Assembly: GCA_022842325.1 (NCBI GenBank)
Contig: JALHPU010000001.1
Coordinates: 144,934 to 208,933 of the forward strand
Source: Sulfuritalea sp.
GTDB taxonomy: Bacteria > Pseudomonadota > Gammaproteobacteria > Burkholderiales > Rhodocyclaceae
Length of the DNA: 64,000 nucleotides
Direction: 5' to 3'
Every line of letters begins with the position of its first letter. Positions within the stretch are counted from its first letter, which is position 1. The translations under genes and the position numbers were made by a program. Shown here one piece after another: positions 26,895 to 40,092 of this stretch. The notes under the pieces are model-generated. The model was not told the DNA's origin. It did not search any database and saw nothing but the letters and a program-made list of their open reading frames with translations.

Positions 26895-27130
26895 AGCACG
26901 GCACCGCCATCACGGCGGAATGCCGGGAGTCGGCGCCGACACTACGGCGCCGAACGCGCCCCACCGCAATGTTGTTTGCGCCAGCCTTTGGCACGCAAGG
27001 TGGGGGCGCACTTTCGGCCACAAGCGGTCCCTCGTCACGCGCTCGAAATTTGTCCCGCACTGCGCCAGGGAACGGCGGCTTTACGGCGATGAAACTGGAA
27101 CCCGGTCTGGCTTGACCCGGCCACAACCAG

Positions 27131-27235
27131 CCGGTCAAGGTAATCATCCAATTTCTACAAGCGAGGCCCCATCTGCCGCCGCTGAATGTCCGGATTACGG
27201 CGAGCAAATTGACGTCGACACTGCTTCGACTCGGC
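27131..27235. repeat. Copy 1 of an about 105-bp direct repeat (other copy 31070-31175)
   Basis: CCGGTCAAGGTAATCATC...TGAATGTCCGGATTACGGCGAGCAAATTGAC...GACTCGGC, roughly 80% identical to copy 2. Confidence 0.6.
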
Positions 27236-27464
27236 AGAAGCGGCCAACGCTGTTAAACACAATTGAAGCGATCAAATGCCCGGTCTACTGGCGGTACGAG
27301 GCGTCAATCTTCGTGTCGCAATGACACTTCCGTGCCAGGTAGATGGATAGTGCGGACCTGACCGAGAGCGGTAGCGCAGATAGGCTACCATTGGCTAAAA
27401 AGCATTCCCGTCGTTACCACCATGCAATACCGCCTACATTCCCAAAGCCCAAGAGCCTTCTGAC

Positions 27465-29195
27465 GTGGATCAAGTCAATACCCTGCTGCTGCTTTCGGGC
27501 GTCCTGCTGTTTCTCGGCGTGCTGGCCAGTACGCTGTCAGCGCGCCTCGGCCTTCCCTTCCTGCTGATCTTTCTTGTCGTCGGCATGCTGGCCGGCGAAG
27601 ATGGTCCAGGGGGCATCCGCTTCGACGATTTCGGGGTCTCGTTTTTTGTCGGCAATCTGGCGCTGGCGATCATCCTGCTCGATGGCGGCCTGCGCACGCG
27701 TATCTCTACCTTTCGCGTCGCGCTCTGGCCGGCGACGGCACTCGCCACCTGGGGCGTGATCGCCACCGCCGCACTGCTGGGGGCCTTCTGCACCTGGCTG
27801 CTCGGCGTGGACTGGCGCTATGGACTACTGATGGGGTCCATCGTCGGGTCGACCGATTCCGCCGCCGTCTTCAACCTTTTGCGCCACAGCGGCGTACGCC
27901 TTAACGAGCGGGTCGGCGCTACGCTGGAAATCGAATCCGGTGCCAATGATCCGATGGCCATCTTGCTGGTTACGGTGCTGGTGGGCATCATCGCCGGCAC
28001 CGGCGTGACCACGCCGGAGGGTGTGCTTCTGCAACTGATAACGCAGTTCGTGATCGGCGCCGCGCTCGGCATCGGCGCTGGGCGCTTGCTCGCCGAGTTG
28101 CTGCGGCGCGTGCGCCTGGCCGAGGGGCTTTCCGCCTTGTTAATCGTCTCGGGCGGGCTGACGGTATTCGCCGCCACCAACCAACTGGGCGGCAGCGGCT
28201 TCCTTGCCATTTATCTTGCCGGTGTGATCGTTGGCAACCGGCGCACGCGCGCCACCTCGCACGTGCTGAAGGTAATGGACGGCATGGCCTGGCTGGCGCA
28301 GGCCGGCATGTTCCTGCTGCTCGGCCTGCTGGTGACGCCTTCCCACCTGGTCAATTATTTCTGGGAGTCGCTCGCCGTCGCGCTGTTTCTGACCTTCGTC
28401 GCGCGGCCGCTGGTGGTTGCCGTGACACTGAAGCCTTTCCACTTTCCCAATCGAGAAATCGCCTATATCTCCTGGGTCGGCCTGCGTGGCGCGGTGCCCA
28501 TCGTGCTGGCCGTGTTTCCAGTCATGGCGGGCATTCCGGAGTCGCGCCTGCTGTTCGACGTCACCTTTGCCGTGGTGCTGTTTTCGCTGCTGGTGCAAGG
28601 CGCTACAGTGCCGTGGGCCGCGCGCCGACTTGACGTGGAAGTTCCACATAGCGCCGAACCGCTCGAATCGAAGGAAGTATGGATCGGACGGGAAACCGTG
28701 CTGGCGCTGGTCGCCTTCCGTGTCGAGACGCAGTCGCTGGCCATCGGCATGTTGCCAAGCTCGCTCACAGATCTGCGCGGTCGGCCCATGCGGTGTGCGG
28801 CCCTTGTGCGTCAGGGGCGTCCCCTGCTCGCGCCCAGTGCGACGGCGCTCAAGGTCGACGATGTTGTCTGGCTGCTGGCTTCGCCCGAACAGGTTGACAA
28901 CCTCACCGCGCTATTTAGTCGCCAAGAACAAAGCGGCCACCTCGCGGTGCGCAACTTCTTCGGCGAATTCGTGCTCGACGCCGACTCATCGGCGGCCGCA
29001 CTTGCTGCGACCTATGGCTTGGAACTCGACGCTGCCGAATCTGAGGGCAGCATTGGCGAACTGTTGGCGAAACGACTGGGGCGTCGCCCGGTGGTTGGTG
29101 ACCGCGTCGGGATTGGGAGCATGGAACTCACGGTGCGTGCGGTAAGCGGCAACCGTGTTGCCTCCGTAGGTCTCAAGATGTCGAAGAGTCACTAA
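27465..29195 (+). CDS. nhaP2: K+/H+ antiporter NhaP2/CvrA family (CPA1) with C-terminal TrkA-C domain
   Basis: 12 TM helices, conserved IESGANDPMAI motif, C-terminal RCK_C domain; GTG start. Confidence 0.8.
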   Translation: MDQVNTLLLLSGVLLFLGVLASTLSARLGLPFLLIFLVVGMLAGEDGPGGIRFDDFGVSFFVGNLALAIILLDGGLRTRISTFRVALWPATALATWGVIATAALLGAFCTWLLGVDWRYGLLMGSIVGSTDSAAVFNLLRHSGVRLNERVGATLEIESGANDPMAILLVTVLVGIIAGTGVTTPEGVLLQLITQFVIGAALGIGAGRLLAELLRRVRLAEGLSALLIVSGGLTVFAATNQLGGSGFLAIYLAGVIVGNRRTRATSHVLKVMDGMAWLAQAGMFLLLGLLVTPSHLVNYFWESLAVALFLTFVARPLVVAVTLKPFHFPNREIAYISWVGLRGAVPIVLAVFPVMAGIPESRLLFDVTFAVVLFSLLVQGATVPWAARRLDVEVPHSAEPLESKEVWIGRETVLALVAFRVETQSLAIGMLPSSLTDLRGRPMRCAALVRQGRPLLAPSATALKVDDVVWLLASPEQVDNLTALFSRQEQSGHLAVRNFFGEFVLDADSSAAALAATYGLELDAAESEGSIGELLAKRLGRRPVVGDRVGIGSMELTVRAVSGNRVASVGLKMSKSH

Positions 29196-29409
29196 ATTGT
29201 TGGGTTGCATTGATCGAGATTGCGAAACCCTTGCACGTCCCTTCACCATAGCGATGGCGGTATGACTGTCTGTGCATCGAGCAAAAACAACCGACCGCTT
29301 CCAGGAAGTGAAATCGCACAGGCCGCTTTTCGGCAATGAATTGTGGAAGGCGACGGTCGCATCGGTGCCCTTAGCAGACGTAGGCGATTTGAGAAAGCGG
29401 ACGCTCAGG

Positions 29410-29494
29410 AACGTAGAGGTGACCGGCGCAGCGCGGCTTTATCGCGCAGCGCCCAGCGACCGAAGGGGGCGAGGTTGAGCGTAGGGGGTTAGAC
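29410..29494. repeat. attC-like palindromic repeat, copy A; the i1 stop codon lies inside its GTTAGAC end
   Basis: AACGTAGAGGTGACC...GCGCAGCGCGGCTTTATCGCGCAGCGC...GGGGGTTAGAC. Confidence 0.55.
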
Positions 29495-29839
29495 ATCGGT
29501 AAATGCAAAGCACCGGTCAAAATTCATTTTGGCTAGCACTACCCTGGCTTCCTTCATTTCACCCTTGTTCACAGAGCCGACATCGAGAACGTAGCGCCGT
29601 ACGGTTGTTTGAATTTGAACTTCGATGCCACTCCAGCGCACAGAGAGAAGCATCTCCGGTTCGGAAAAGCTCGAAGCCTCAGTTCTAACGGAAACACCCC
29701 GTTCTTCCTCAGGAATCAGAGACTCATACTTCGGAGTGCGAAGCAACGTAAGACTTGTACTCGAATGCTCTCCAAGACCGAACGAAACGACCAGATCGTC
29801 TGCGTCGTCAATGGTGATGAAAGGAACGTAGGTACTCAT
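29489..29839 (-). CDS. Hypothetical 116-aa protein (island ORF i1)
   Basis: ATG sits 3 nt beyond the GTTTAAC end of repeat B; low-GC codon usage. Confidence 0.5.
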   Translation of the reverse strand: MSTYVPFITIDDADDLVVSFGLGEHSSTSLTLLRTPKYESLIPEEERGVSVRTEASSFSEPEMLLSVRWSGIEVQIQTTVRRYVLDVGSVNKGEMKEARVVLAKMNFDRCFAFTDV

Positions 29840-29842
29840 GAT

Positions 29843-29908
29843 GTTTAACGTGGAGATAAGCCACCTGCGCGGCCTTTCGCGCAGGTCGCCTCGAACGCAG
29901 GGTTAGAT
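29843..29908. repeat. attC-like palindromic repeat, copy B
   Basis: GTTTAACGTGGAGATAAGCC...CTGCGCGGCCTTTCGCGCAG...GGGTTAGAT. Confidence 0.55.
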
Positions 29909-29926
29909 TCCGGCGCTGCCATGGCC

Positions 29927-30811
29927 TTAATGACGGATCGTTTCATCTTGCGGAACAATACTTCCGACGTACTCGCCTTGCCGCCAGTAGCCCTCGTGGA
30001 CAACTTGTGAATCAGCGTCGAAATAGGTGCCCGGGCCGTCAAAAGAACCTCTCGAGAAGTTGCCTTTATACCAATCTCCGTTCACGTAACTCAACCGCCC
30101 TTGTCCAGAAAACTCCCCTCTACTGAAATCACCGACATATAGCTCGCCATTGGCACGCTTCAATTGGCCATGCCCGTGAAAGAAGCCGTACTCAAAAGTA
30201 CCCTCGTAGATGTCTCCGAGGGCGTTGATATGGCGTCCTTGCCCATGCCAAAGCCCCCCTTTGAATTCGCCGTCGTAGCGATCGGCGTTTGGAAATAATG
30301 CAGTCGCGACTCCCTGACAAACGCCTGAGTCAAAGTTTCCAGAAAGAACCGTCCCGTCTCTGTAAGTCCATGTTCCGCGGCCATGAACTGCTCCACGGAA
30401 GAAATCGCCCTCGTACCTATCTCCCGCCGCAGTAACCACGACGCCCTTTCCATCACAGTAGTCGTTCTTGAACTCCCCTTCATAGACTTGGCCAGTTTCC
30501 GACCATATTTTCCCCGCGCCATGGTATTGGCCGTTCCGAAAATCGCCTTCGTAATGGCTGCCAGAAGCGAAGGTATACGAGCCCTTTCCGGTTCTTGCGC
30601 CGTTCGTCATTGCGCCAAGATATACATCCCCAGAAGCAAATGTGGTCTTCCCTGATCCATGCATCAGTCCATTTAGGAATGTACCCTCATACACCGTACC
30701 GTCAGGCCATCGGAGAACACCACGGCCGTTAAATAGGCCGTTGGCAACTTCGCCCACGTATATCGAGCCATCCGGCAAAAGTGCTTCCTGTTCGGGTTGT
30801 GAGAAAGTCAT
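29927..30811 (-). CDS. MORN-repeat protein (about 12 repeats, cytoplasmic)
   Basis: Reiterated YxGxxxxGxxHGxG units (YEGEFKNDYCDGKGV, YEGDFRNGQYHGAGK and others). Confidence 0.8.
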   Translation of the reverse strand: MTFSQPEQEALLPDGSIYVGEVANGLFNGRGVLRWPDGTVYEGTFLNGLMHGSGKTTFASGDVYLGAMTNGARTGKGSYTFASGSHYEGDFRNGQYHGAGKIWSETGQVYEGEFKNDYCDGKGVVVTAAGDRYEGDFFRGAVHGRGTWTYRDGTVLSGNFDSGVCQGVATALFPNADRYDGEFKGGLWHGQGRHINALGDIYEGTFEYGFFHGHGQLKRANGELYVGDFSRGEFSGQGRLSYVNGDWYKGNFSRGSFDGPGTYFDADSQVVHEGYWRQGEYVGSIVPQDETIRH

Positions 30812-30836
30812 CGTATGGCGGAACAGAGGAATCTAA

Positions 30837-30910
30837 ACGTGGAGATGGCCGGCGCTGCGCGGCCTCATCGCGCATTTCTTCTTCGGGTGAGAGGCAGCGC
30901 ATTTTTAACC
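30837..30910. repeat. attC-like palindromic repeat, copy C (immediately upstream of the MORN gene start)
   Basis: AACGTGGAGATGGCCGGCGCTGCGCGGCCTCATCGCGCA... Confidence 0.5.
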
Positions 30911-31069
30911 CCTTCTCCGAAGATCGTTACATTATTTTCAGTCACATGGTATTTTTACGGTCAGTATGACAACTCCTATATGCCTGACACCTGTGGATAG
31001 TTTTCCGAATGCGGGAGTACGGGGACGAGTGTCCGCGCAGGGGTAGCAATCATTTAGGTCCGCCTTTGG

Positions 31070-31175
31070 CCGGTCAAAGTAGTCATCAAGTTCCCCCAGG
31101 CGAAGCACCCGCCGCCCGTGTTGAATGTCCAGATTTACGGCGAGCAAATTGACACCTGCACTGCCCCGACTCGGC
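31070..31175. repeat. Copy 2 of the about 105-bp direct repeat (see 27131-27235)
   Basis: CCGGTCAAAGTAGTCATC...TGAATGTCCAGATTTACGGCGAGCAAATTGAC...GACTCGGC. Confidence 0.6.
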
Positions 31176-31306
31176 CATCAAAAGACATTTCCCCAAAGAT
31201 CTGAATTAGCGCTTCAGGCGCAACGACCATTCGGATAAGCCTAAAACGGTGGATAAAGCGACCGCCACGATCCATGCGGCGACATTCGAGGTATCGGTGA
31301 GCGTGC

Positions 31307-32695
31307 TCATTTTCCGCTGCCGGCTACCGCAGTTATTTTGTTCAGCAAACTCTTGCCCTCATCGGTCTGAGCCAAGGCCGTCAGCATGCCAGAAATGTTG
31401 GTTCCACCCTGAGGCGTGAACATGTCACCAAGCTTGACGACGCCCCCTTGGATGTCACCGGCATTGGCGATGACTTTCAATTCGGCGCTTTGCATGGCTT
31501 TCGCCATCTCGATACCCACATCCTTGCCAGCCTTGACCTGTTCGATAGTCACCAAATACTTCTGGTAGCCCTCGTTGCTGCCGATTTCCTTGGCCAGCGT
31601 GATCTGCGTTTCAACAGGCGCCAACAGCATCGCCTTCTCGGCAGCCGCGTGGGCTTCACCCTTGGCCTTGATGCCTTCCGCTTCTTTTAGTGACGCCGCC
31701 AGATCACCTTCCGCTTTGACAGTCATTGACCGGCTGTCCGCCTCGGCCCCGACAACCAGCGCCTGCCGGTCGGCTTCGGCATTCACGATCTTGACCTGCT
31801 TGTTTTGCTCCGCCAACACTATGGCGACTTCTTTGCCAATCTCGGCTGCCCGCACCTTTTCAACTTGACTGACCGACATGTTGCGTTCGGCGGTGGTTTT
31901 GGCTTCCACCTGAATCTGTTGGCGCGACTGCTCGTTGGCAATGCCAACTACCTGGTCCTTCTGCGCCGTCCTTAGCCCCACCTGTTGCTCGGCGTCTTGG
32001 CGTTGTACTTCAACCGTACGCTTGGCATCGATCTCTGCCATCTCGGCTGCCTGATGATTGCTAGCGACGGCGATCCGACTTTCCTTCTCGATACGGGACT
32101 TCTCTTTCTCCATGATATTGGCGATCACTTGCCCTTTGCTCGAATCACGGATATCCATGAACTCAATGGTCTTGACTGGAAGCACTCCCCACTCCGCGAT
32201 CTGGTTCTTTACTTCCATCGTGAATTGGTTACCAAGGTCGGAACGCGACTGAAGAATGATCTCAAGAGGATTGGTCGCAAGGATGCGGCGAACAGCGCCC
32301 TGTAGCACTGATGTCAGTTGGCTCTGAAGTTCGCCAAACGATGCCACACGCTGTGCCGCGGTCTCCGCCAACTCAACACGAAAGAATGCCGAGACATCGA
32401 CCGTGAAAGGCAGCCGTGCCTGATCGTAGGCTTCGTACGCATCGAGGTTGATCTGAAATATAGACTCCGGGAACTCGATGATCGACACGCCAAGACTGGG
32501 CACGCGCGTCGGCCAGGCGTAGTAAGAATTGCCGGAAGCTTTGCCGCGCCCGTAGGGTGTGGTACTGGACGACGACTGGACAATGTGCACCATGTTGGTA
32601 GGCACCACCCGACGCAACATCATGGCAACGAGGAAACCCGCAAATGCCAGTGCGAGGACTAGTAAAAGCAACAACGGAACAAGAAATTCAAACAT
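31307..32695 (-). CDS. Flotillin-like SPFH/band-7 domain protein (YqiK/FloT-like)
   Basis: N-terminal TM, SPFH domain, long Ala/Glu/Gln-rich coiled-coil flotillin region. Confidence 0.8.
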   Translation of the reverse strand: MFEFLVPLLLLLVLALAFAGFLVAMMLRRVVPTNMVHIVQSSSSTTPYGRGKASGNSYYAWPTRVPSLGVSIIEFPESIFQINLDAYEAYDQARLPFTVDVSAFFRVELAETAAQRVASFGELQSQLTSVLQGAVRRILATNPLEIILQSRSDLGNQFTMEVKNQIAEWGVLPVKTIEFMDIRDSSKGQVIANIMEKEKSRIEKESRIAVASNHQAAEMAEIDAKRTVEVQRQDAEQQVGLRTAQKDQVVGIANEQSRQQIQVEAKTTAERNMSVSQVEKVRAAEIGKEVAIVLAEQNKQVKIVNAEADRQALVVGAEADSRSMTVKAEGDLAASLKEAEGIKAKGEAHAAAEKAMLLAPVETQITLAKEIGSNEGYQKYLVTIEQVKAGKDVGIEMAKAMQSAELKVIANAGDIQGGVVKLGDMFTPQGGTNISGMLTALAQTDEGKSLLNKITAVAGSGK

Positions 32696-33205
32696 AGGAT
32701 CGGCCTTACGAAAGTAAATGGAATGAGGAATACGTCAGAAGACTTCGTGCCCAATGGGCGGGAATTGTTCTGGACATTCAGTCCCAAAGTCCAATGGCGA
32801 AAACAAACCTCTAAAGGATAGAAAATACAGTGGGCATTCAGGAAGTATGGCTGATGCCGTATGCCGCAGTCAATCGTCGATTCCACACGGAGAAGCATCT
32901 GAATCCGCCGAAATGCCTTCCGCAGTGGCCCGCGCGCTGGGGCAATGCGCGGTGATGGAACGGCAGCAATGAGTCAAGCACTTCGGCAATTAGACGTTTA
33001 TCTTCCATGCTATCTGGGAAGTGCTTTGCCGCGACTGAAATGGGCGTCGGGGGGGGCTGTGGTTGGTGTGGCCGGCGCGGACAAAAAGGCAGCCCCGCAC
33101 TTAGCGCAATCTGACGCACCCAATGAGACCATTAAGTGGCAGTTCGGACAGATCATGAGGCTCAACGTGCTAGCGCAGAGGTGCGAAGCCGGCTTCCGCT
33201 TGCAC

Positions 33206-34060
33206 CTAGTTAACTCGTATCTCTTCTATGAGGAAACCAAAGAGAGAACTTCTCCCTGCAACTGTGATCGAGTCGCCGATTTTTGGAGTACGGCCAATGA
33301 CTCGCCCTTCAATACAAATTTTTACATCAATTCCTTCAATACTAATTTTCGCCGTTTGGTCGCATTTCATGCTTCTGCGTGGTTCGCGCATCACCTCCAC
33401 TGACACTACTTTCGCTGCTTTAGGCGCTGAACGAGTTCCGATTGCCCAACCTGCCAATGCCGACCATCCCAACGGCGAGAAGATCACCATAGCTGACGAC
33501 ATAACGACAACCAGCGGAAACATAAGCAGCCATCGCACCAGCCAAGTAGGGTATCGGTAAGCCAGGGTGCGTTGTTTCCGTTCAAGTCGAAACCACATGA
33601 TCGCGAATGCCGGCAATAGAACAGCAAACAGATATGGCAATGCGACGCGGTATTGGTTGGTGTACGAAAAGACAAAATTTTCCCCAACGGTGAACTCAAG
33701 AGGAACGCTTAGGAAGGCGAACAACGCAAGCACTAATGCTGTTTTCTGCCACACACCAGGACGCGGAGTCGTTGGATGCTGCGTTTTGATTTCAGCAATA
33801 CTATCGGCTACCTCCTTGTCCAAACGGTCCGAGATCGACTGTAACCGGGCCTCTATGCGCTTTGTGGCGTCCGCGTCGAGTTTTCCTTGGCGCTCAAGTT
33901 CCGATCCTTCTCGAAAGACAGCCTCCATTTCGGCAGATGCACGCTTAAAGGCTGCATTTGCGTTCCCATCCAAGTCATTAAGTGGTTTGTCCGGCAGACG
34001 AGCCTGGCAATCTTGGACTGGGACTTGGTTACTCATTTTGGAGACGCCAAACGTAAACAT
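33206..34060 (-). CDS. Hypothetical membrane protein (island ORF i4); coiled-coil N-terminus, about 4 TM helices, C-terminal beta-rich domain
   Basis: ORF with TM segments; alternative start at MSNQ (34036). Confidence 0.45.
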   Translation of the reverse strand: MFTFGVSKMSNQVPVQDCQARLPDKPLNDLDGNANAAFKRASAEMEAVFREGSELERQGKLDADATKRIEARLQSISDRLDKEVADSIAEIKTQHPTTPRPGVWQKTALVLALFAFLSVPLEFTVGENFVFSYTNQYRVALPYLFAVLLPAFAIMWFRLERKQRTLAYRYPTWLVRWLLMFPLVVVMSSAMVIFSPLGWSALAGWAIGTRSAPKAAKVVSVEVMREPRRSMKCDQTAKISIEGIDVKICIEGRVIGRTPKIGDSITVAGRSSLFGFLIEEIRVN

Positions 34061-34108
34061 GATCTGCGCTTCGCGGCATCGTCGCGTAGCATCCGGGGGA
34101 ATGATTCG

Positions 34109-34534
34109 TTATGCCTTTGTAGCGACAAGATAGACCCAGCCACCAGCAGGCTCACGCTTTACAGTGGCCTGCGAACGAGGAAGGCACCGCGGCTGAAGTT
34201 TCGAGAAGTCACCCTTGTTTCTTGGGTGCTCCGTATATGCAACGACTTGTTGTTTCTGAACGAAGACAAGCACGTTAATTCCATCGCTTCCAGCAATTGA
34301 TGTTTTTGATTCTGCGTCCCACCTGAAGCCCAGAACCTGTTCGGCAGTTTGGTTGGTTGTGTACGGCGACAACACACAAACACGCTCCCACGACGCTGGC
34401 CCGACGAGTGACAAATCAATCGGGGCAGTCTTGCTGGCCTCAAATTGCATTGCGATCTGCTTACTTATGGGCGAGCTACCACTGGAACACCCTAATAACA
34501 AAATCAGTGGCAAGACGAGCGAAGTTAGTCTCAT
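34109..34534 (-). CDS. Lipoprotein (island ORF i5, 141 aa)
   Basis: Signal peptide with LLGC lipobox. Confidence 0.5.
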   Translation of the reverse strand: MRLTSLVLPLILLLGCSSGSSPISKQIAMQFEASKTAPIDLSLVGPASWERVCVLSPYTTNQTAEQVLGFRWDAESKTSIAGSDGINVLVFVQKQQVVAYTEHPRNKGDFSKLQPRCLPRSQATVKREPAGGWVYLVATKA

Positions 34535-34613
34535 AGGGCAGAATTAATTCACAGGCCAGCGAGGATTTTTAGCGCTGGTCCGGTGGAATGATGGGCTACG
34601 CCGAAACCTGGTA

Positions 34614-35519
34614 TCAGTTCTTAGTCGTCCTATGCCTCTCGAAGTAGCTAATAAGACCTTCCAGTTCTTGATCAGATAATGCCCGAGGAGTGCTATAGCC
34701 AAGTGTCGGGAACGGGCCTAGGTAGACGAATACTGCTTCAAATGACCATGACTGGCGATGTCTTTTACAGGTGAATGAACACGTACTCCATCTATCACCA
34801 ATCCTTCCCATATGTGCATATAGGCGGGCGCAGAAGTAGTGAAGTGCCAAGGAAGGCTCGATTCGTTCCGCGGAACCACCGTCACCGTTAATTTGGCATC
34901 GAATTGAAATCCCATCGCAGTCGACAACTAGTTCGGCGCCACGCCAAGATTGTGGGAGCGCAGCAACTAATTCACAGATCAACGGCTGGATAGTTGTTTC
35001 GTAGTCAGAAGCTCGACTAACAATACGATGATCTGAACTCTTATTGCGCCATATTGGAAGAGGATTGATAGTTCTCGGCTGGCTGCGCTCCTTTAGCGCT
35101 TCAACGAGGGAAACAGCCTGCCACTCACGGCGCGAAAACAGATTTCGAACACTCCTACGTTTTACCAATACAAACACCCCAGACATGAAAACTACCAAGC
35201 CAATCAGGACCACCAACATCGAAATTGAAGAAATTCGAGCCGCTGACTGCACGCTTACGATAGAAATGGCAATAGCCACCATGCCAAGGCCAGCCACTAC
35301 GGCAGTTCTGCCCCCACGTTGTAAGCCTGAAGCCTTCCTGCGGTCATAACTTTCAATGGCAGAATCAAGGCGATCAGAAGTCGCCATGCTTCTTATCATT
35401 TCGTCAACCGCAGCTAACATTTCTTGCTTTTCAGGGTTATCCGGAAGTGCGTGGAGTTCTTTACGGAAAGATTCGGTCTCCACGAGCATGTGTTCGCTTT
35501 GAAAGGGTTTAGTGTTCAT
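34614..35519 (-). CDS. Hypothetical membrane protein with Cys-rich C-terminal domain (island ORF i6, about 301 aa)
   Basis: Start at MNTKPFQ (ATG 35519), immediately 3' of repeat D; the longer ORF 34614..35630 reads into the repeat. Confidence 0.45.
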   Translation of the reverse strand: MNTKPFQSEHMLVETESFRKELHALPDNPEKQEMLAAVDEMIRSMATSDRLDSAIESYDRRKASGLQRGGRTAVVAGLGMVAIAISIVSVQSAARISSISMLVVLIGLVVFMSGVFVLVKRRSVRNLFSRREWQAVSLVEALKERSQPRTINPLPIWRNKSSDHRIVSRASDYETTIQPLICELVAALPQSWRGAELVVDCDGISIRCQINGDGGSAERIEPSLALHYFCARLYAHMGRIGDRWSTCSFTCKRHRQSWSFEAVFVYLGPFPTLGYSTPRALSDQELEGLISYFERHRTTKN

Positions 35520-35528
35520 TGGGAGATG

Positions 35529-35644
35529 ACTGTGGAGATATACCAAAGGCAACACAGGGCTTACCGTGAGGCGACCGGCGCTGCGCGGCTTCATCGCGCA
35601 GCGTCCAGAGATCGAAGCGAACGGGACCAACCGCAGGGTTAGCC
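35529..35644. repeat. attC-like palindromic repeat, copy D; the i7 stop codon lies inside its GTTAGCC end
   Basis: ACTGTGGAGATATACC...GCTGCGCGGCTTCATCGCGCAGC...CAGGGTTAGCC. Confidence 0.55.
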
Positions 35645-36088
35645 ATCGGATTTGACGGAGACATATTCAACCTTGACGTCTCGACGGAGAGGCTCGGCTT
35701 TGAAAAGGCGGACGAGCGGATGATGCTCAATACGCAAGTGATGGTCAGAAACCCAACTTACGGCGATAGCTGGCCCACCACTTGGACCAGCGGGGGCTTT
35801 GCCGTGATCGCGGTCTGCGACGAAGATGTTTCCTCCTTCATTAGGGAGCGAGTCAGTACCCCTGAGAATGGAAACCTGAGTTGAAAAATCCGTGGTGGCG
35901 CCACAGTCGCGACTGAAAACAACAGCATTGATTTGGCCACCGGGAGCGCCAGACTCAGCAAGGATGGAATTTCCGCAGAGATCCGGAACGAGAAGCGAGA
36001 ATGCGGTGACGGCCAAAGCAACAAGGCCAGCGACAACACCCGCGATAACGCCACGTACCTTCAACCAATAAAAGAGCCGCGGGTTCAT
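35639..36088 (-). CDS. Hypothetical membrane-anchored protein (island ORF i7, 149 aa)
   Basis: N-terminal TM helix; ORF bounded by repeats D and E. Confidence 0.45.
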   Translation of the reverse strand: MNPRLFYWLKVRGVIAGVVAGLVALAVTAFSLLVPDLCGNSILAESGAPGGQINAVVFSRDCGATTDFSTQVSILRGTDSLPNEGGNIFVADRDHGKAPAGPSGGPAIAVSWVSDHHLRIEHHPLVRLFKAEPLRRDVKVEYVSVKSDG

Positions 36089-36241
36089 GTCAGATGGCTA
36101 ACGAAGCTGTAGAAAAAGTCTTTTCATAGTCGCATCGTGCCGCGAACCAAATGGAATATCAATACTCGAAGCATGAGTTATTGCGCAGATGTAATCATGG
36201 CCCGCTACAAACACATCAATAACGTAGAGCTGACGATGCCG

Positions 36242-36763
36242 TCAACGTGAAGTGGACCGGTTCTGCGCGGCTTCATCACGCGACACCTGGTGGCTTGATA
36301 GCGCAGAGGGGAATTGAGTTCCGTCATGCCACAGGCGTCGCGCAACATAGAGAAATGCCAAGCCTAATGGTAAGAAGGCAATCAGCAAGCCGCGACTTGC
36401 GGCAACGTAAGCTGAAATTGAATCAACTGGTAATGACTGACCCATTTCTTTCTGATTGAATCGAATTTCAATCGTACTTCCTAAATAGATGTCTGGCCGT
36501 ATCGGTGCCTGGGCGGTACCGAGATTCAAATTGCCCTTTGAGTCGGTGTAGTTGTACCGGATAAGTGAGTAGCGAGTATCACGGACAAAACAATAGAACG
36601 AAGGCAATCTAACGTCGGTCCGTTCAGTGACTCGGCCATATGCTGTTTCCCAGTTGTATGCATCGGAACTTTGCCGATAATCAGACACGGCTCCGGGTAC
36701 CGATACGAATAAACCCAAAGCCATCAAGGCAGCGAGTATCGCAACTACGCGTTCAGCGTTCAT
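36242..36763 (-). CDS. Hypothetical protein with N- and C-terminal TM helices (island ORF i8); the true 3' end may lie upstream of repeat E
   Basis: ORF with TM segments; C-terminal codons run through the repeat. Confidence 0.4.
   Translation of the reverse strand: MNAERVVAILAALMALGLFVSVPGAVSDYRQSSDAYNWETAYGRVTERTDVRLPSFYCFVRDTRYSLIRYNYTDSKGNLNLGTAQAPIRPDIYLGSTIEIRFNQKEMGQSLPVDSISAYVAASRGLLIAFLPLGLAFLYVARRLWHDGTQFPSALSSHQVSRDEAAQNRSTSR
36244..36310. repeat. attC-like repeat, copy E (degenerate; overlaps the 3' end of ORF i8)
   Basis: AACGTGAAGTGGACC...CTGCGCGGCTTCATCACGCGAC...AGCGCAGAGGGG. Confidence 0.4.
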
Positions 36764-37158
36764 AGCTCTAGCTTCCTTTTTTATGTCACGCCAATTCTTA
36801 TTTTGAACAACGCCGTTTTGATCGACATTGTGCCGACAAATCGAGGAGACAACAATGCCTCTGACATGCTGAATGGCAGGTTACTGCCATATATATGAAG
36901 GACCGCTCCTGGCCGGTAGGTTGAGGTCGACAATGGCCGGTTCGGAGCATCCAAGTCGCAAAGTCAGGATTTGGCTGACTGGCCGGTATGGAGAAATGCG
37001 ACTGGCCGGAATGGGCACATAGCGCCAGTCCGCGATACTGGATGCAACCACGATGGAGTTCCGAGGAACGGACCCTGACCAACTACCAAAGCGTCGCGCC
37101 GCCACTGCGTTGACGTGCCGAAAGTCGGCGCTGACAACACGGCACCAGTCGTGCGTCG

Positions 37159-39744
37159 CTAGGCCTTCCTGACCCGCATCGCCTCGGCCATCGAAATGTT
37201 CGGCCGATGGATGTAGAAGCCCTGCGCCAGATCGATGCCCTGCACGATCACCTGATCGAGCACCTCCTGGTCCTCGACATATTCGGCCACGGTGCGGATG
37301 CCGAGATCCTTGCTCAGCGTGACGATGCTGCGCACCAGCGCGCGGTCCTTCTCGCTGTGCTTCATGCCGAGGATGAAGTCGCCTTCGATCTTGAGGAAAT
37401 CGATCGGGAAGCGCTTGACGTAATGGAAGGACGAAAAGCCGGAACCGAAATCGTCGATCGCCAGCTTGAAGCCTTCGTTGCGCAGTGTGCCTATGAAGCG
37501 TTCCAGCAGCGCCATGTTCTTGATCGTCTCGCGTTCGGTGATCTCGAACACCAGCCGGGTCGGATCGATCTTGAACTGGCTGGCGATGCGCCGCGTCTGC
37601 TGGACGAAATCGTTGAGCACCAGCGCGCGCGGCGACATGTTGATGAACAGGTAGCCACCGTAGCCGGTCTGCTCCACCGCTTCCAGGGTCTTTTCCAGCT
37701 GGATGAAATCCAGCTTGTGCATGACGCCCATCTTTTCGGCGATGGCCACGTACTCGTCGGCGATGACATAACTGCCATCCTCCATGCGGATGCGCGAGAG
37801 GATCTCGATCGCCTCGACCTGGCCGCTGAGCACATTGACGATGGGCTGGAAGAAAGGCACCACGCTGCGCTTTTCGACCGCATTCAGGATCAGCATGCTC
37901 TTCTCGCCGAGGGTGCGGAAGACGTCGATCACGTCCTGCGCATCGGGTACCACCACACGATTCTTGCCCTCGGCCTTGGCCCGGTACATCATGTTGTCGG
38001 CGAACAGGAACAGGTCCTTCATGGCCTGCGCATGATCGGGATAGGTGGCCATGCCGATCGACACCGAGCCGCACATCACCGCACCGTCGGGCGCGGTCAT
38101 GCTCACCGCGGCGACCGATTCGATGATGCGCCGCGCCACCGCCTCGCCGGCTTTCAGATCGGTTTCCGGCAGGATCGCAACGAACTCGTCGCCGCCGTAG
38201 CGCGACAGCAGGTCGTCGTCGCGGATCGCCGCCTTGATGCCGCCGACCACCAGTTGCAACATCGAATCGCCGATGCCATGGCCGTAGGAATCGTTGATCG
38301 ACTTGAAGTTGTCGGCGTCGATCACCAGCAGGGTGAACTTGTTGCCATGGCGCGAGGAACGCAACACTTCGTTCTCGATCAGTTCCCAGAATACGCGCTG
38401 GTTGTAGAGGTTGGTCAGCGGGTCGCGCGTCGCGTAGTACTCGAGGTCCTTGGTGTATTTGTCGATCGCCTTGACCGAGCCGACCACGTTGAGCAGCGTG
38501 GTGAGGATGCTTTCCACCACCAGCAGGCGCATCGGGTCGGTCTCGAACTGCGGCTGCATGCCGATGCCGACGATGCCGCCGATCTTGGGCGCATCGACCA
38601 TCAGCGACTTGATCTGCACGTCGATGTCCTCCTCGCGCAATTCCGCGATGTTGCCGGCCATGTCGGCGATGTTGTGGCGGATGCGGATCGCCAGGCCGGC
38701 CTCGAAATGCTCGGCGCGCTGGAGGATGTGCTGCAGGCAGTTCTCGAATACCTGCCTGGTGGCTTCGGACGGCCGGGCGCGCCAGAAGATCTCCAGGTCG
38801 TAGGCCTCGTCGCTGATCTTGAACACCGAGAACATCACATAGGCCGGCACCACGCTGTCGATGTCGAGGATCAGGCGGCTGACGTAGGCCCGCCAGTCCT
38901 TGATCACCTCCGTGGTGAGGATGAATTTCTCGAGCAGCCGGATCTCGAATTCGAGCATGTCCTTGTCGACGGCAATGGTCCGTATGCGCTCGGTGAGTTG
39001 CCTCACTTCACTGGCCACGGCATCGAACTCGGCAAAGCCCAGGTCGGGCTGCCGGGCTTCCAGCGCGCGCAGGTCCGAGATGCGGTTCACCGCACGGATG
39101 CTCTTCGCCAGCGACTCGATCGGGCCTTCCAGGCGGCGACGGATGTAGAGCACCATCAGGAAAGTCACGATCAGCATCACCGGAATGATCGGGGCGAAGG
39201 CATAGCTGAAACGCGCGCGGTGCGATTCGATTGCGGCGCCGACGTTCTGCTGCACGTCGATCACACCCAGCACGTCGCCGACCGCGGCATTGACATGGCA
39301 CTTGAGGCAGACCTCCTGCGCGCGCAGGGGATACACCACGCGGATCAAGTCACCGGTTTCGAGATGCTGGCGATTGCCTTCCCTCAGCGCGCGCAGGATC
39401 TCGGCATCCGGGGTTTTCTGCGCGATCTCGCCGAACAGCGCGCTGACCTTGGGCCCACGATAGATGTCGATCTGGCGCTGGGTGTTATCGACGGATTTCT
39501 GGATGGCCCGCAGGTAGCCTTCGAGCTGCTGACGATTCCATCCGGTGCTCATCAGCTCGAACATGGCGTTGAAGGTCAGCTCGGCAAACACCGAGGCGTC
39601 CTCGACCGCATCGTCGCGTACCGAACGGTCGTAGATTCCCGAAACCACGAAAAGTGTCGTGGCAAATATCGCAATCGAGAAAACCGCGCCGGCAGCGAGC
39701 AGTAGTCCCTTGATGCTGCGGACAAGATTCATGTTTTGTTTCAA
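37159..39744 (-). CDS. Membrane-anchored sensor diguanylate cyclase/phosphodiesterase (periplasmic/HAMP-like N-terminus, GGDEF and EAL domains)
   Basis: GGDEF (RYGGDEF) and EAL (EAL...DDFGSG) motifs; 861 aa. Confidence 0.85.
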   Translation of the reverse strand: MKQNMNLVRSIKGLLLAAGAVFSIAIFATTLFVVSGIYDRSVRDDAVEDASVFAELTFNAMFELMSTGWNRQQLEGYLRAIQKSVDNTQRQIDIYRGPKVSALFGEIAQKTPDAEILRALREGNRQHLETGDLIRVVYPLRAQEVCLKCHVNAAVGDVLGVIDVQQNVGAAIESHRARFSYAFAPIIPVMLIVTFLMVLYIRRRLEGPIESLAKSIRAVNRISDLRALEARQPDLGFAEFDAVASEVRQLTERIRTIAVDKDMLEFEIRLLEKFILTTEVIKDWRAYVSRLILDIDSVVPAYVMFSVFKISDEAYDLEIFWRARPSEATRQVFENCLQHILQRAEHFEAGLAIRIRHNIADMAGNIAELREEDIDVQIKSLMVDAPKIGGIVGIGMQPQFETDPMRLLVVESILTTLLNVVGSVKAIDKYTKDLEYYATRDPLTNLYNQRVFWELIENEVLRSSRHGNKFTLLVIDADNFKSINDSYGHGIGDSMLQLVVGGIKAAIRDDDLLSRYGGDEFVAILPETDLKAGEAVARRIIESVAAVSMTAPDGAVMCGSVSIGMATYPDHAQAMKDLFLFADNMMYRAKAEGKNRVVVPDAQDVIDVFRTLGEKSMLILNAVEKRSVVPFFQPIVNVLSGQVEAIEILSRIRMEDGSYVIADEYVAIAEKMGVMHKLDFIQLEKTLEAVEQTGYGGYLFINMSPRALVLNDFVQQTRRIASQFKIDPTRLVFEITERETIKNMALLERFIGTLRNEGFKLAIDDFGSGFSSFHYVKRFPIDFLKIEGDFILGMKHSEKDRALVRSIVTLSKDLGIRTVAEYVEDQEVLDQVIVQGIDLAQGFYIHRPNISMAEAMRVRKA

Positions 39745-40092
39745 TGAATTACCAAGGAAGACCAGTCTAGGTTACGGCAACACGGAATGAGAACGTAAGC
39801 AATTTTAGTGCAAGCCCTGCGGGTAGAACTCTCTGACCAGCCCCTGCGGCCGCGCCACAAACCGGCCGCGACGCCTTGGCCCTGGCCAACAGCACGCTGA
39901 CTTCGTGACCCGCGCCATAGCGGTCGCGCACCTTGGCCGGAATCGGGCCGATGCAAAACCCGGCGGATTCATATCGCCGGGAACGCCGATACGCATTGCA
40001 CCACCCTGCAAATGGAATATTTTTTCCAGCATGCCGCAGCCTTGCTCCCGGCATTCTTTTCGATGCCGGCAACTGGTAAGATGGCCTTGATG

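Follow-up and report, generated by a model that had tools for sequence, protein, structure and literature searches.

Gene-junction repeats in a Sulfuritalea-like betaproteobacterium are very probably attC sites of a cassette array lacking an integron-integrase

A 64,000-nucleotide stretch of Sulfuritalea sp. DNA (assembly GCA_022842325.1, contig JALHPU010000001.1, positions 144,934 to 208,933; the whole stretch is hereafter called the window) contains a family of repeats at the junctions of a run of co-oriented genes. We concluded, with a probability of about 0.92, that these repeats are attC sites (59-base elements) of an integron cassette array and that the locus is a cluster of attC sites lacking an integron-integrase (CALIN). 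About eight promoterless cassettes lie head to tail in 7.6 kb, and the coding (top) strand of the array is the minus strand of the window. The bottom strand of an attC site folds as an imperfect hairpin: R'' (RYYYAAC) is base-paired to R' (GTTRRRY), and L'' to L', with some bases left extrahelical. The integrase IntI binds the folded site, and strand exchange takes place in R' between its G and its TT; by the action of IntI cassettes are excised as circles and re-inserted. An earlier reading of the same DNA from its letters alone (the sequence-only reading) had interpreted the repeats as attC sites. This interpretation was supported, being backed by similarity to known attC sites, association with IntI genes, covariation in the L box, the position of the repeats at gene ends and cassette differences between related contigs. 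As a representative of a known type of element the locus is ordinary, a routine but clean chromosomal cassette array without integrase from an uncultured Sulfuritalea-like betaproteobacterium.

The repeat family, noticed originally as five copies (A to E) at gene junctions, proved to be real and non-random. A 23-nucleotide hairpin pattern, GCTGCGCG-N7-CGCGCAGC, occurred four times with up to two mismatches against an expectation of 0.73, and none of 100 shuffled sequences reached four occurrences. A repeat search of the window gathered five copies in one family (D7), with A paired with D over 71 nucleotides. All copies were located on the minus strand and within a low-GC island flanked by nhaP2 and a GGDEF-EAL gene. 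Presence of the core hairpin at many unrelated loci, without association with ORF boundaries, had been named beforehand as a finding contrary to an attC identity; in the window the core was confined to the island. The inventory had to be amended. Copies A, B and D were called as attC sites by the covariance models described below, and C and E turned out to be decayed remnants. Two further members, F and H, had been overlooked. Copy D had been drawn as 35529-35644, but its true span starts at 35559, and the CTGTGGAGATA at 35529-35539 is part of a solo 3' remnant distinct from D. A possible sixth copy suspected at 33160-33220 (element G) has R''- and R'-like ends, but it was detected by neither covariance model. 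The left end that all copies were said to share was found as the exact 11-mer AACGTGGAGAT in B and C only, with AACGTAGAGGT in A and AACGTGAAGTG in E. The perfect 8-bp stem exists in D and, with a different sequence, in B, but seven of eight positions pair in A, and C and E are worse. The right-end GGGTTAG is present in A, B and D as described, and the stop codon TAA is embedded in the R'' box not only of A and D, as had been seen, but also of F. The short distances from the R' box to the next ATG were likewise confirmed, amounting to 3-20 nucleotides in the array.

In a BLAST comparison of the island with plasmids, site A matched the blaOXA-21 3' end of a class 1 integron, in which fosX and intI1 are present as well. 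Site A was 79% identical to the blaOXA-21 attC site. In gene orientation, the latter reads ...GCGCGATAAAGCCGCGCAGCGCCGGTTACTTCTACGTT and element A ...GCGCGATAAAGCCGCGCTGCGCCGGTCACCTCTACGTT, so that core and 3' half agree nearly base for base. Site B, compared by eye, shares the architecture of the aadA1 attC site, a sequence that was matched at 100% in R100 and was found in 2,515 plasmid records in total. The class 1 sites (blaOXA-2/OXA-21 and aadA1) and the sites in the window have the architecture R''-L''-stem-L'-R' in common. Unlike class 1 cassettes, the cassettes of the window are without resistance genes. The array belongs to an environmental Rhodocyclales genome, where its context is chromosome-like, whereas its class 1 counterpart resides in a Tn402-type mobile integron.

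The 25-nucleotide core GCGCGATRARGCCGCGCWGCGCCGG was found without mismatch in species-representative genomes, in at least 119 stretches. Examined as stretches of 8 kb each, these belonged, among the matches listed, mostly to Rhodocyclales, Nitrosomonadales and Burkholderiales (mostly Betaproteobacteria). Homologues of IntI1 (tblastn, 44-66% identity) were encoded in 20 of the 119 stretches among the matches listed, three of them frameshifted. All 24 cores in these 20 stretches lay upstream of intI, on the opposite strand and 0.6-6.6 kb away from it, which is the canonical integron layout. A search for the core in other genomes had been suggested as a check on the attC interpretation, and its outcome was that the core tracked IntI genes, with the canonical layout throughout. 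This association holds for the attC family, not for the locus in the window. The family occurs in long (about 88 nucleotides) and short (about 70 nucleotides) forms in arrays beside intI in Sulfuritalea, Thiobacillus, Sulfuricella and related genomes and metagenome-assembled genomes. The window shares its attC family with betaproteobacterial chromosomal integrons, whose integrases are IntI1-like, but it possesses the cassettes and no intI, attI or Pc promoter. The attC type of a clinical cassette of the blaOXA-2 family is, accordingly, the common attC type of environmental betaproteobacterial integrons, which fits the betaproteobacterial origin proposed for class 1 integrons (PMC8618304).

Because plain folding did not discriminate the sites from shuffled sequence, covariance models were used instead. 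Fifty-two foreign attC sites were aligned with MAFFT (alignment A1), and a hand-written attC structure was counted on the alignment. In the L box, 95.5% of the cells were paired, and three pairs changed on both sides (GC/AU 35:13, CG/GC 25:23 and AU/CG/GC 26:10:10). A bulged, unpaired C inside the L box was constant across the 52 sites. The covariation score was 0.166, as compared with 0.095 ± 0.007 in shuffles, of which 0 of 500 reached 0.166, and with 0.017-0.069 when the 3' partners were slid. The invariance of AAC and GTT in A1 arose by construction, because the sites had been selected on those triplets; in an unselected set, GTT was present at the expected offset in 108 of 125 sites. Model R1 was built from A1 and searched with filters off. 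Model R2 was broader and was built from 76 matches from IntI-linked loci plus the class 1 integron. Neither model contained sequence from the window. Five attC sites (A, B, D, F and H) were called, all on the minus strand and all in the island (Table 1). When R1 and R2 were run over the 64 kb, the best E value outside the island was 0.04 or worse, and significant matches were confined to 29.4-35.7 kb. As to the performance of the models, R1 gave the OXA-21 attC site 75.8 bits, both models placed the class 1 attC sites of OXA-21 and fosX correctly, and they detected an array of about 9-10 same-strand sites beside intI in each of two loci (L030 and L054).

Comparison with related contigs bore on past mobility. 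A scan of metagenomes with ORF1 returned seven loci. One of them, contig L130, carries the ORF1 cassette with 91% amino-acid and 93% nucleotide identity, then an attC site of 70 bits and then a second attC site. Homology between L130 and the window starts at TTAAAC/TTAGAC, i.e. at the TT of the R' box of B, and stops at the ...ACGTT of attC A. L130 has one extra cassette, encoding 183 amino acids and bearing its own attC site, and then continues with the same terminal flank, TTCCTGAGCGTCCGC..., as the window. Judged from these alignments, the difference between the two contigs is the precise gain or loss of one cassette at the G|TT crossover, still recorded in the related contig. The suggestion that the core tracks variable gene content was thus borne out, cassette content differing exactly at G|TT. 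In other loci, attC matches were found on both sides of the ORF1 homologue (L132) or directly upstream of it (L131). A homologue of ORF5 on a Methylobacter plasmid (L003; 82% nucleotide identity) also had attC matches on both sides, and these sites differed from site F.

The array consists of eight co-oriented minus-strand open reading frames (ORFs) with attC sites at their 3' ends, and six of the eight had no Pfam match. For annotation, this means that eight 'hypothetical' genes can be named integron cassettes. Canonical AAC...GTT end boxes are found in A, B and F, but not in D (R' GGTAAGC), H (AGC in place of AAC, GTT gone) or C and E (R'' gone). Pairing in the L box shows one mismatch in B and two in A, is poor in F, and is achieved in D on the top strand only via G-T wobbles. 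Site B is the best preserved and looks intact. In the model alignments, site A, the last of the array, shows two mismatches in the L box and four outer ones in the R box. In site D, L'' is mutated to GGTTGGT, and a broken A-G pair in the R box was marked by the model alignment. In remnant C, the 5' half (R'' and L'') is exchanged for unrelated sequence; the core pattern is matched exactly, and R1 and R2 yielded a local core match only (14-16 bits). Element G, when read directly, has a central hairpin different from that of the family. Site E overlaps the 3' end of ORF8. The solo remnant at 35529-35558 resembles the 3' end of site B, and the one at 36221-36234 equals the 3' end of the family and recurs identically, for example, in L098. 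For ORF4, a start at 34036 is more likely than the listed ATG at 34060, because the latter falls within attC F.

Table 1. Features of the cassette array and its surroundings, with bit scores and E values from covariance models R1 and R2. Positions are those of the window.
Feature	Position	Strand	Remarks	R1	R2
nhaP2	27465-29195	+	K+/H+ antiporter gene, left flank		
Low-GC island with array	29365-37012		6-bp inverted repeat at edges, GTGCCC (29359-29364) / GGGCAC (37013-37018)		
attC A, long form	29406-29494	-	R'' GTCTAAC with TAA stop of ORF1; R' GTTCCTG	69.5 bits, E 1e-17	45.1 bits, E 1.5e-9
ORF1 cassette	29489-29839	-	116 amino acids; no Pfam match		
attC B, short form	29843-29908	-	R'' ATCTAAC; R' GTTAAAC; ORF1 ATG 3 nucleotides past R'	33.6 bits, E 4e-7	46.7 bits, E 5.4e-10
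ORF2 cassette	29927-30811	-	294 amino acids; MORN-repeat protein (Pfam PF02493, E 8.6e-48)		
attC C remnant	30832-30876	-	family core hairpin, L' and R' (GTTTAGA) kept	16.0 bits, E 0.06 (core only)	
ORF3 cassette	31307-32695	-	462 amino acids; SPFH/Band 7, flotillin-like (Pfam PF01145, E 1.5e-13)		
Element G, possible atypical attC, unconfirmed	33160-33215	-	R'' AGTTAAC with TAA stop of ORF4; R' GTTGAGC		
ORF4 cassette	33206-34036	-	about 276 amino acids; no Pfam match		
attC F	34046-34114	-	R'' GCATAAC with TAA stop of ORF5; R' GTTTGGC; poor L-box pairing	26.2 bits, E 6e-5	32.6 bits, E 3.8e-6
ORF5 cassette	34109-34534	-	141 amino acids; probable lipoprotein; no Pfam match		
attC H, degenerate	34536-34601	-	L''/L' pair ATTCCAC/GTGAAT kept; AAC changed to AGC; GTT gone	13.2 bits, E 0.43	24.6 bits, E 6e-4
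ORF6 cassette	34614-35519	-	301 amino acids from ATG 35519; no Pfam match		
Solo attC 3'-half remnant (...TATCTCCAC|AGT)	35529-35558	-	between D and ORF6; read from sequence		
attC D, long form	35559-35644	-	R'' GGCTAAC with TAA stop of ORF7; R' mutated, GGTAAGC	78.1 bits, E 3e-20	49.1 bits, E 1.2e-10
ORF7 cassette	35639-36088	-	149 amino acids; no Pfam match; R' box GTTAGCC (36102-36096) before ORF7		
Truncated IS1182-family left end	36098-36217	+	sits at attC R' GTT		
Solo attC L'-R' remnant GTCAGCTCTACGTT	36221-36234	-	adjoins truncated IS1182-family end; read from sequence		
attC E, degenerate	36240-36305	-	core mutated, no R''; R' GTTGACG; member of repeat family D7	12.7 bits, E 0.58	14.9 bits, E 0.25
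ORF8 cassette	36242-36763	-	173 amino acids; no Pfam match; first gene of array		
GGDEF-EAL gene	37159-39744	-	right flank		
REP-like repeat copies	6659, 11009, 12980, 18383, 22008, 26922, 37117, 43721, 46823, 56906, 61121, 62212				

An integrase gene or pseudogene was sought by two approaches. A tblastn search with IntI1 over the 64-kb window gave a best E value of 0.44, and a hidden Markov model of 16 IntI proteins, run against the six-frame translation of the 64 kb, gave a best E value of 1.3. No integrase, attI site or intI pseudogene was found within 27 kb on either side of the array. By the canonical layout, a plus-strand intI gene would be expected rightward of 36.8 kb, and none is there. 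The features of a complete integron (intI, attI and a Pc promoter beside the first cassette) were absent, the next gene upstream of ORF8 being the GGDEF-EAL gene. The segment between them (36764-37012, minus strand) contains four direct copies of (A/T)(A/C)CCGGCCA(G/T); it was not recognisable as attI and showed no similarity to IntI or to any IntI-linked locus. As the 64-kb window held no intI, the array was classified as a CALIN as defined by Cury et al. 2016 (PMC4889954), where a CALIN is free of an integron-integrase, and usually of a pseudogene, over about 10 kb and the mean CALIN size is reported as five attC sites. Like the CALINs described, it has same-strand attC sites bounding mostly unannotated cassettes with no integrase or integrase pseudogene nearby, and its size (five to eight sites) is typical. 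In contrast to that description, the array is visibly decayed at several sites and includes a fragment of an insertion sequence (IS) of the IS1182 family. It may be seen as a CALIN caught mid-decay, with mutated core triplets, half-sites and the IS fragment.

Three same-strand attC matches of the family were also observed on the Azoarcus sp. KH32C plasmid pAZKH (L002, 7974-10596), adjoining an IS3 transposase and several small genes in a row on the minus strand. This group may be a further cassette cluster that has no integrase beside it.

We propose that the array was assembled by IntI activity and that it afterwards parted from its integrase, or that the integrase was lost. Since then it would have been decaying: D has GGT for GTT, H is without AAC and GTT, C is without its 5' half, E is degenerate, and the IS fragment and solo half-sites have appeared. 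The decay might reflect relaxed selection after integrase loss. Only B, and perhaps A and F, would still be competent for mobilisation by IntI in trans.

Several observations weigh against the identification as an attC array without integrase. Although neighbouring sites elsewhere are about 350 (A-B), 420 (F-H) and 960 nucleotides (H-D) apart, B and F are separated by 4.1 kb, with only remnant C and the unconfirmed element G in between. This slightly exceeds the 4-kb clustering rule of IntegronFinder, which might therefore report two clusters. The boxes that define attC sites are broken in D, H and C, and the G-T wobbles of D on the top strand correspond to A-C mismatches on the bottom strand, the recombinogenic one. 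Despite having the family core, sites A and D reached only 45-49 bits with R2, whereas typical core-bearing sites elsewhere scored about 60-91; the few foreign sites below 55 bits were those without GTT or without the 5' half. Folding of the bottom strands, another check put forward with the sequence-only reading, recovered the central stem, whereas the R/L pairing was largely missing and was seen partly in D. These minimum-free-energy DNA folds had weak z-scores (-2.1 to +0.6) that did not separate attC from shuffled sequence, and the test has little power. The search for intI covered the 64-kb window. Finally, the evidence for cassette mobility is comparative and concerns past events.

The main alternative is that a rearrangement detached the array from a working integron, with intI elsewhere in the genome and cassettes still being excised and captured in trans. 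According to Cury et al. 2016 (PMC4889954), IntI is encoded in the replicon or genome of about half of all CALINs, and rearrangement is proposed as one origin. A rearrangement is indeed seen in the related genome represented by L130. That metagenome contig (1190-1200) joins position 29365 of the window straight to 37013. Thus, we deduced that L130 has all 7.6 kb of the island in the orientation opposite to that of the window, with the breakpoints in the inverted repeat GTGCCC/GGGCAC. The one-cassette difference of L130 at attC A implies IntI activity in the history of the lineage, and the apparently intact site B would suit continued use. On the other hand, D, H, C and E have mutations at essential positions, the IS fragment and the solo half-sites point to decay, and the integrase search extended over the 64-kb window. 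Taking both sides together, we regard a detached but working integron as a possibility of clearly less than even odds.

Readings that deny the repeats a role in integrons fared much worse. GC-rich hairpins between genes, whose energy-based folds show little past the central stem, could in principle be palindromes like repetitive extragenic palindromic (REP) sequences or bacterial interspersed mosaic elements, or Rho-independent terminators, with no role in recombination. Such an identity is highly improbable: the core is found only in the island, the true REP-like repeat of the window is another sequence (families D3-D5), and the family, which includes a class 1 integron attC site, is physically associated with canonically oriented IntI genes in 20 other genomes among the matches listed. 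That the repeats are not terminators had already been stated in the sequence-only reading, and we found no terminator-like T-run on the minus strand after any site. We give equally little credit to the idea that the repeats are the ends of a miniature inverted-repeat transposable element (MITE), or of another small transposable element, spread between genes. The repeats do have an imperfect inverted symmetry, and an unrelated IS1182-family element and its MITE-like derivatives are present in such arrays. But no target-site duplications and no paired terminal repeats around a unit were seen, every copy has the orientation of the genes and overlaps their stop codons, and the unit that varies between related contigs is a gene plus attC bounded at G|TT, not the repeat alone.

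The IS fragment was analysed separately. It comprises an inverted repeat, GAAGCTGTAGAAAAA, a 5' untranslated region and the first approximately seven codons (MARYKHI) of an IS1182-family element. It is 82-89% identical to copies in L004 and L121 and 73-84% identical to copies in L046, L055, L060 and L088. The full-length copy in L004 encodes a transposase of 508 amino acids that matched NF033551 with 263 bits, just below the cutoff of 270 bits. Of the 19 inverted-repeat ends in the loci fetched, 18 lie directly against GTT (or the complementary AAC) at the R' box of an attC site. A relative from Pseudoalteromonas piscicida with 45% amino-acid identity, found by similarity of the transposase alone, is likewise located in a same-strand attC array with GTT on both flanks. 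A group IIC-attC intron had been considered for the gap at 36.1 kb; it was rejected, as an IS1182-type end is found there. Site-specific insertion into attC is also known for IS1111-attC elements and group IIC-attC introns. The IS1182-family element differs from them by its DDE transposase, its terminal inverted repeats, GTT on both flanks and insertion at the R' GTT itself. A search of plasmid DNA with the IS yielded nothing, and a protein search yielded only relatives with 45-50% identity. No paper describing targeting of attC by IS1182 elements was found in the literature searched. We tentatively suggest, at somewhat less than even odds, that the fragment derives from an undescribed clade of the IS1182 family, with MITE-like derivatives, that inserts precisely at the attC R' GTT. 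If so, the clade would add a third class to the attC-specific mobile elements, beside IS1111-attC elements and group IIC-attC introns, and would be of interest for integron dynamics. It may contribute to the splitting and inactivation of cassette arrays such as that in the window.

As for the elements themselves, the terminal repeat of these IS1182-family copies reads GA(A/G)GCTGTAGAA, and their insertions are exactly at the attC R' GTT, with GTT on both flanks. IS or MITE-like copies were observed at window 36098-36217 (plus strand), L004 713-2508, L121 3106-3466 and L137 4880-6718.

The island has a GC content of 51-55% (at about 29-38 kb), as against 61-68% in the flanks. Close relatives, with NhaP2 proteins 92-97% identical and named Sulfuritalea or Rhodocyclales, share only 27117-29375 with the window. 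The array is absent at nhaP2 in the close relatives compared, and homology to them stops at 29370-29375. A scan of the window for tRNA and tmRNA genes as possible integration markers found neither, and a search of the whole window against Rfam gave nothing at the gathering threshold. In the close relatives L125, L127 and L128, the genes immediately upstream of nhaP2 encode the conjugation proteins TraG and TraH, tyrosine recombinases and an IS91-type transposase. These differing mobile elements made the nhaP2 neighbourhood appear to be an insertion hotspot in the lineage. Contig L130 is without most of the GGDEF-EAL gene (37363-40040).

An element of about 110 nucleotides upstream of nhaP2 (27129-27237, plus strand) is conserved in all relatives. 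A copy with about 78% identity (31068-31177, plus strand; repeat family D14) resides inside the array, between remnant C and the flotillin-like gene. The element had no Rfam match at the E-value threshold, and alignment and folding gave no convincing structure. The REP-like repeat CGCCGTGNCGCCAGCGCCGACT (families D3-D5) has about 12 copies in the window in both orientations (Table 1). One copy (37117-37144) lies just beyond the right edge of the island, and the motif is shared with the Rhodocyclales loci L004, L014, L046 and L121.

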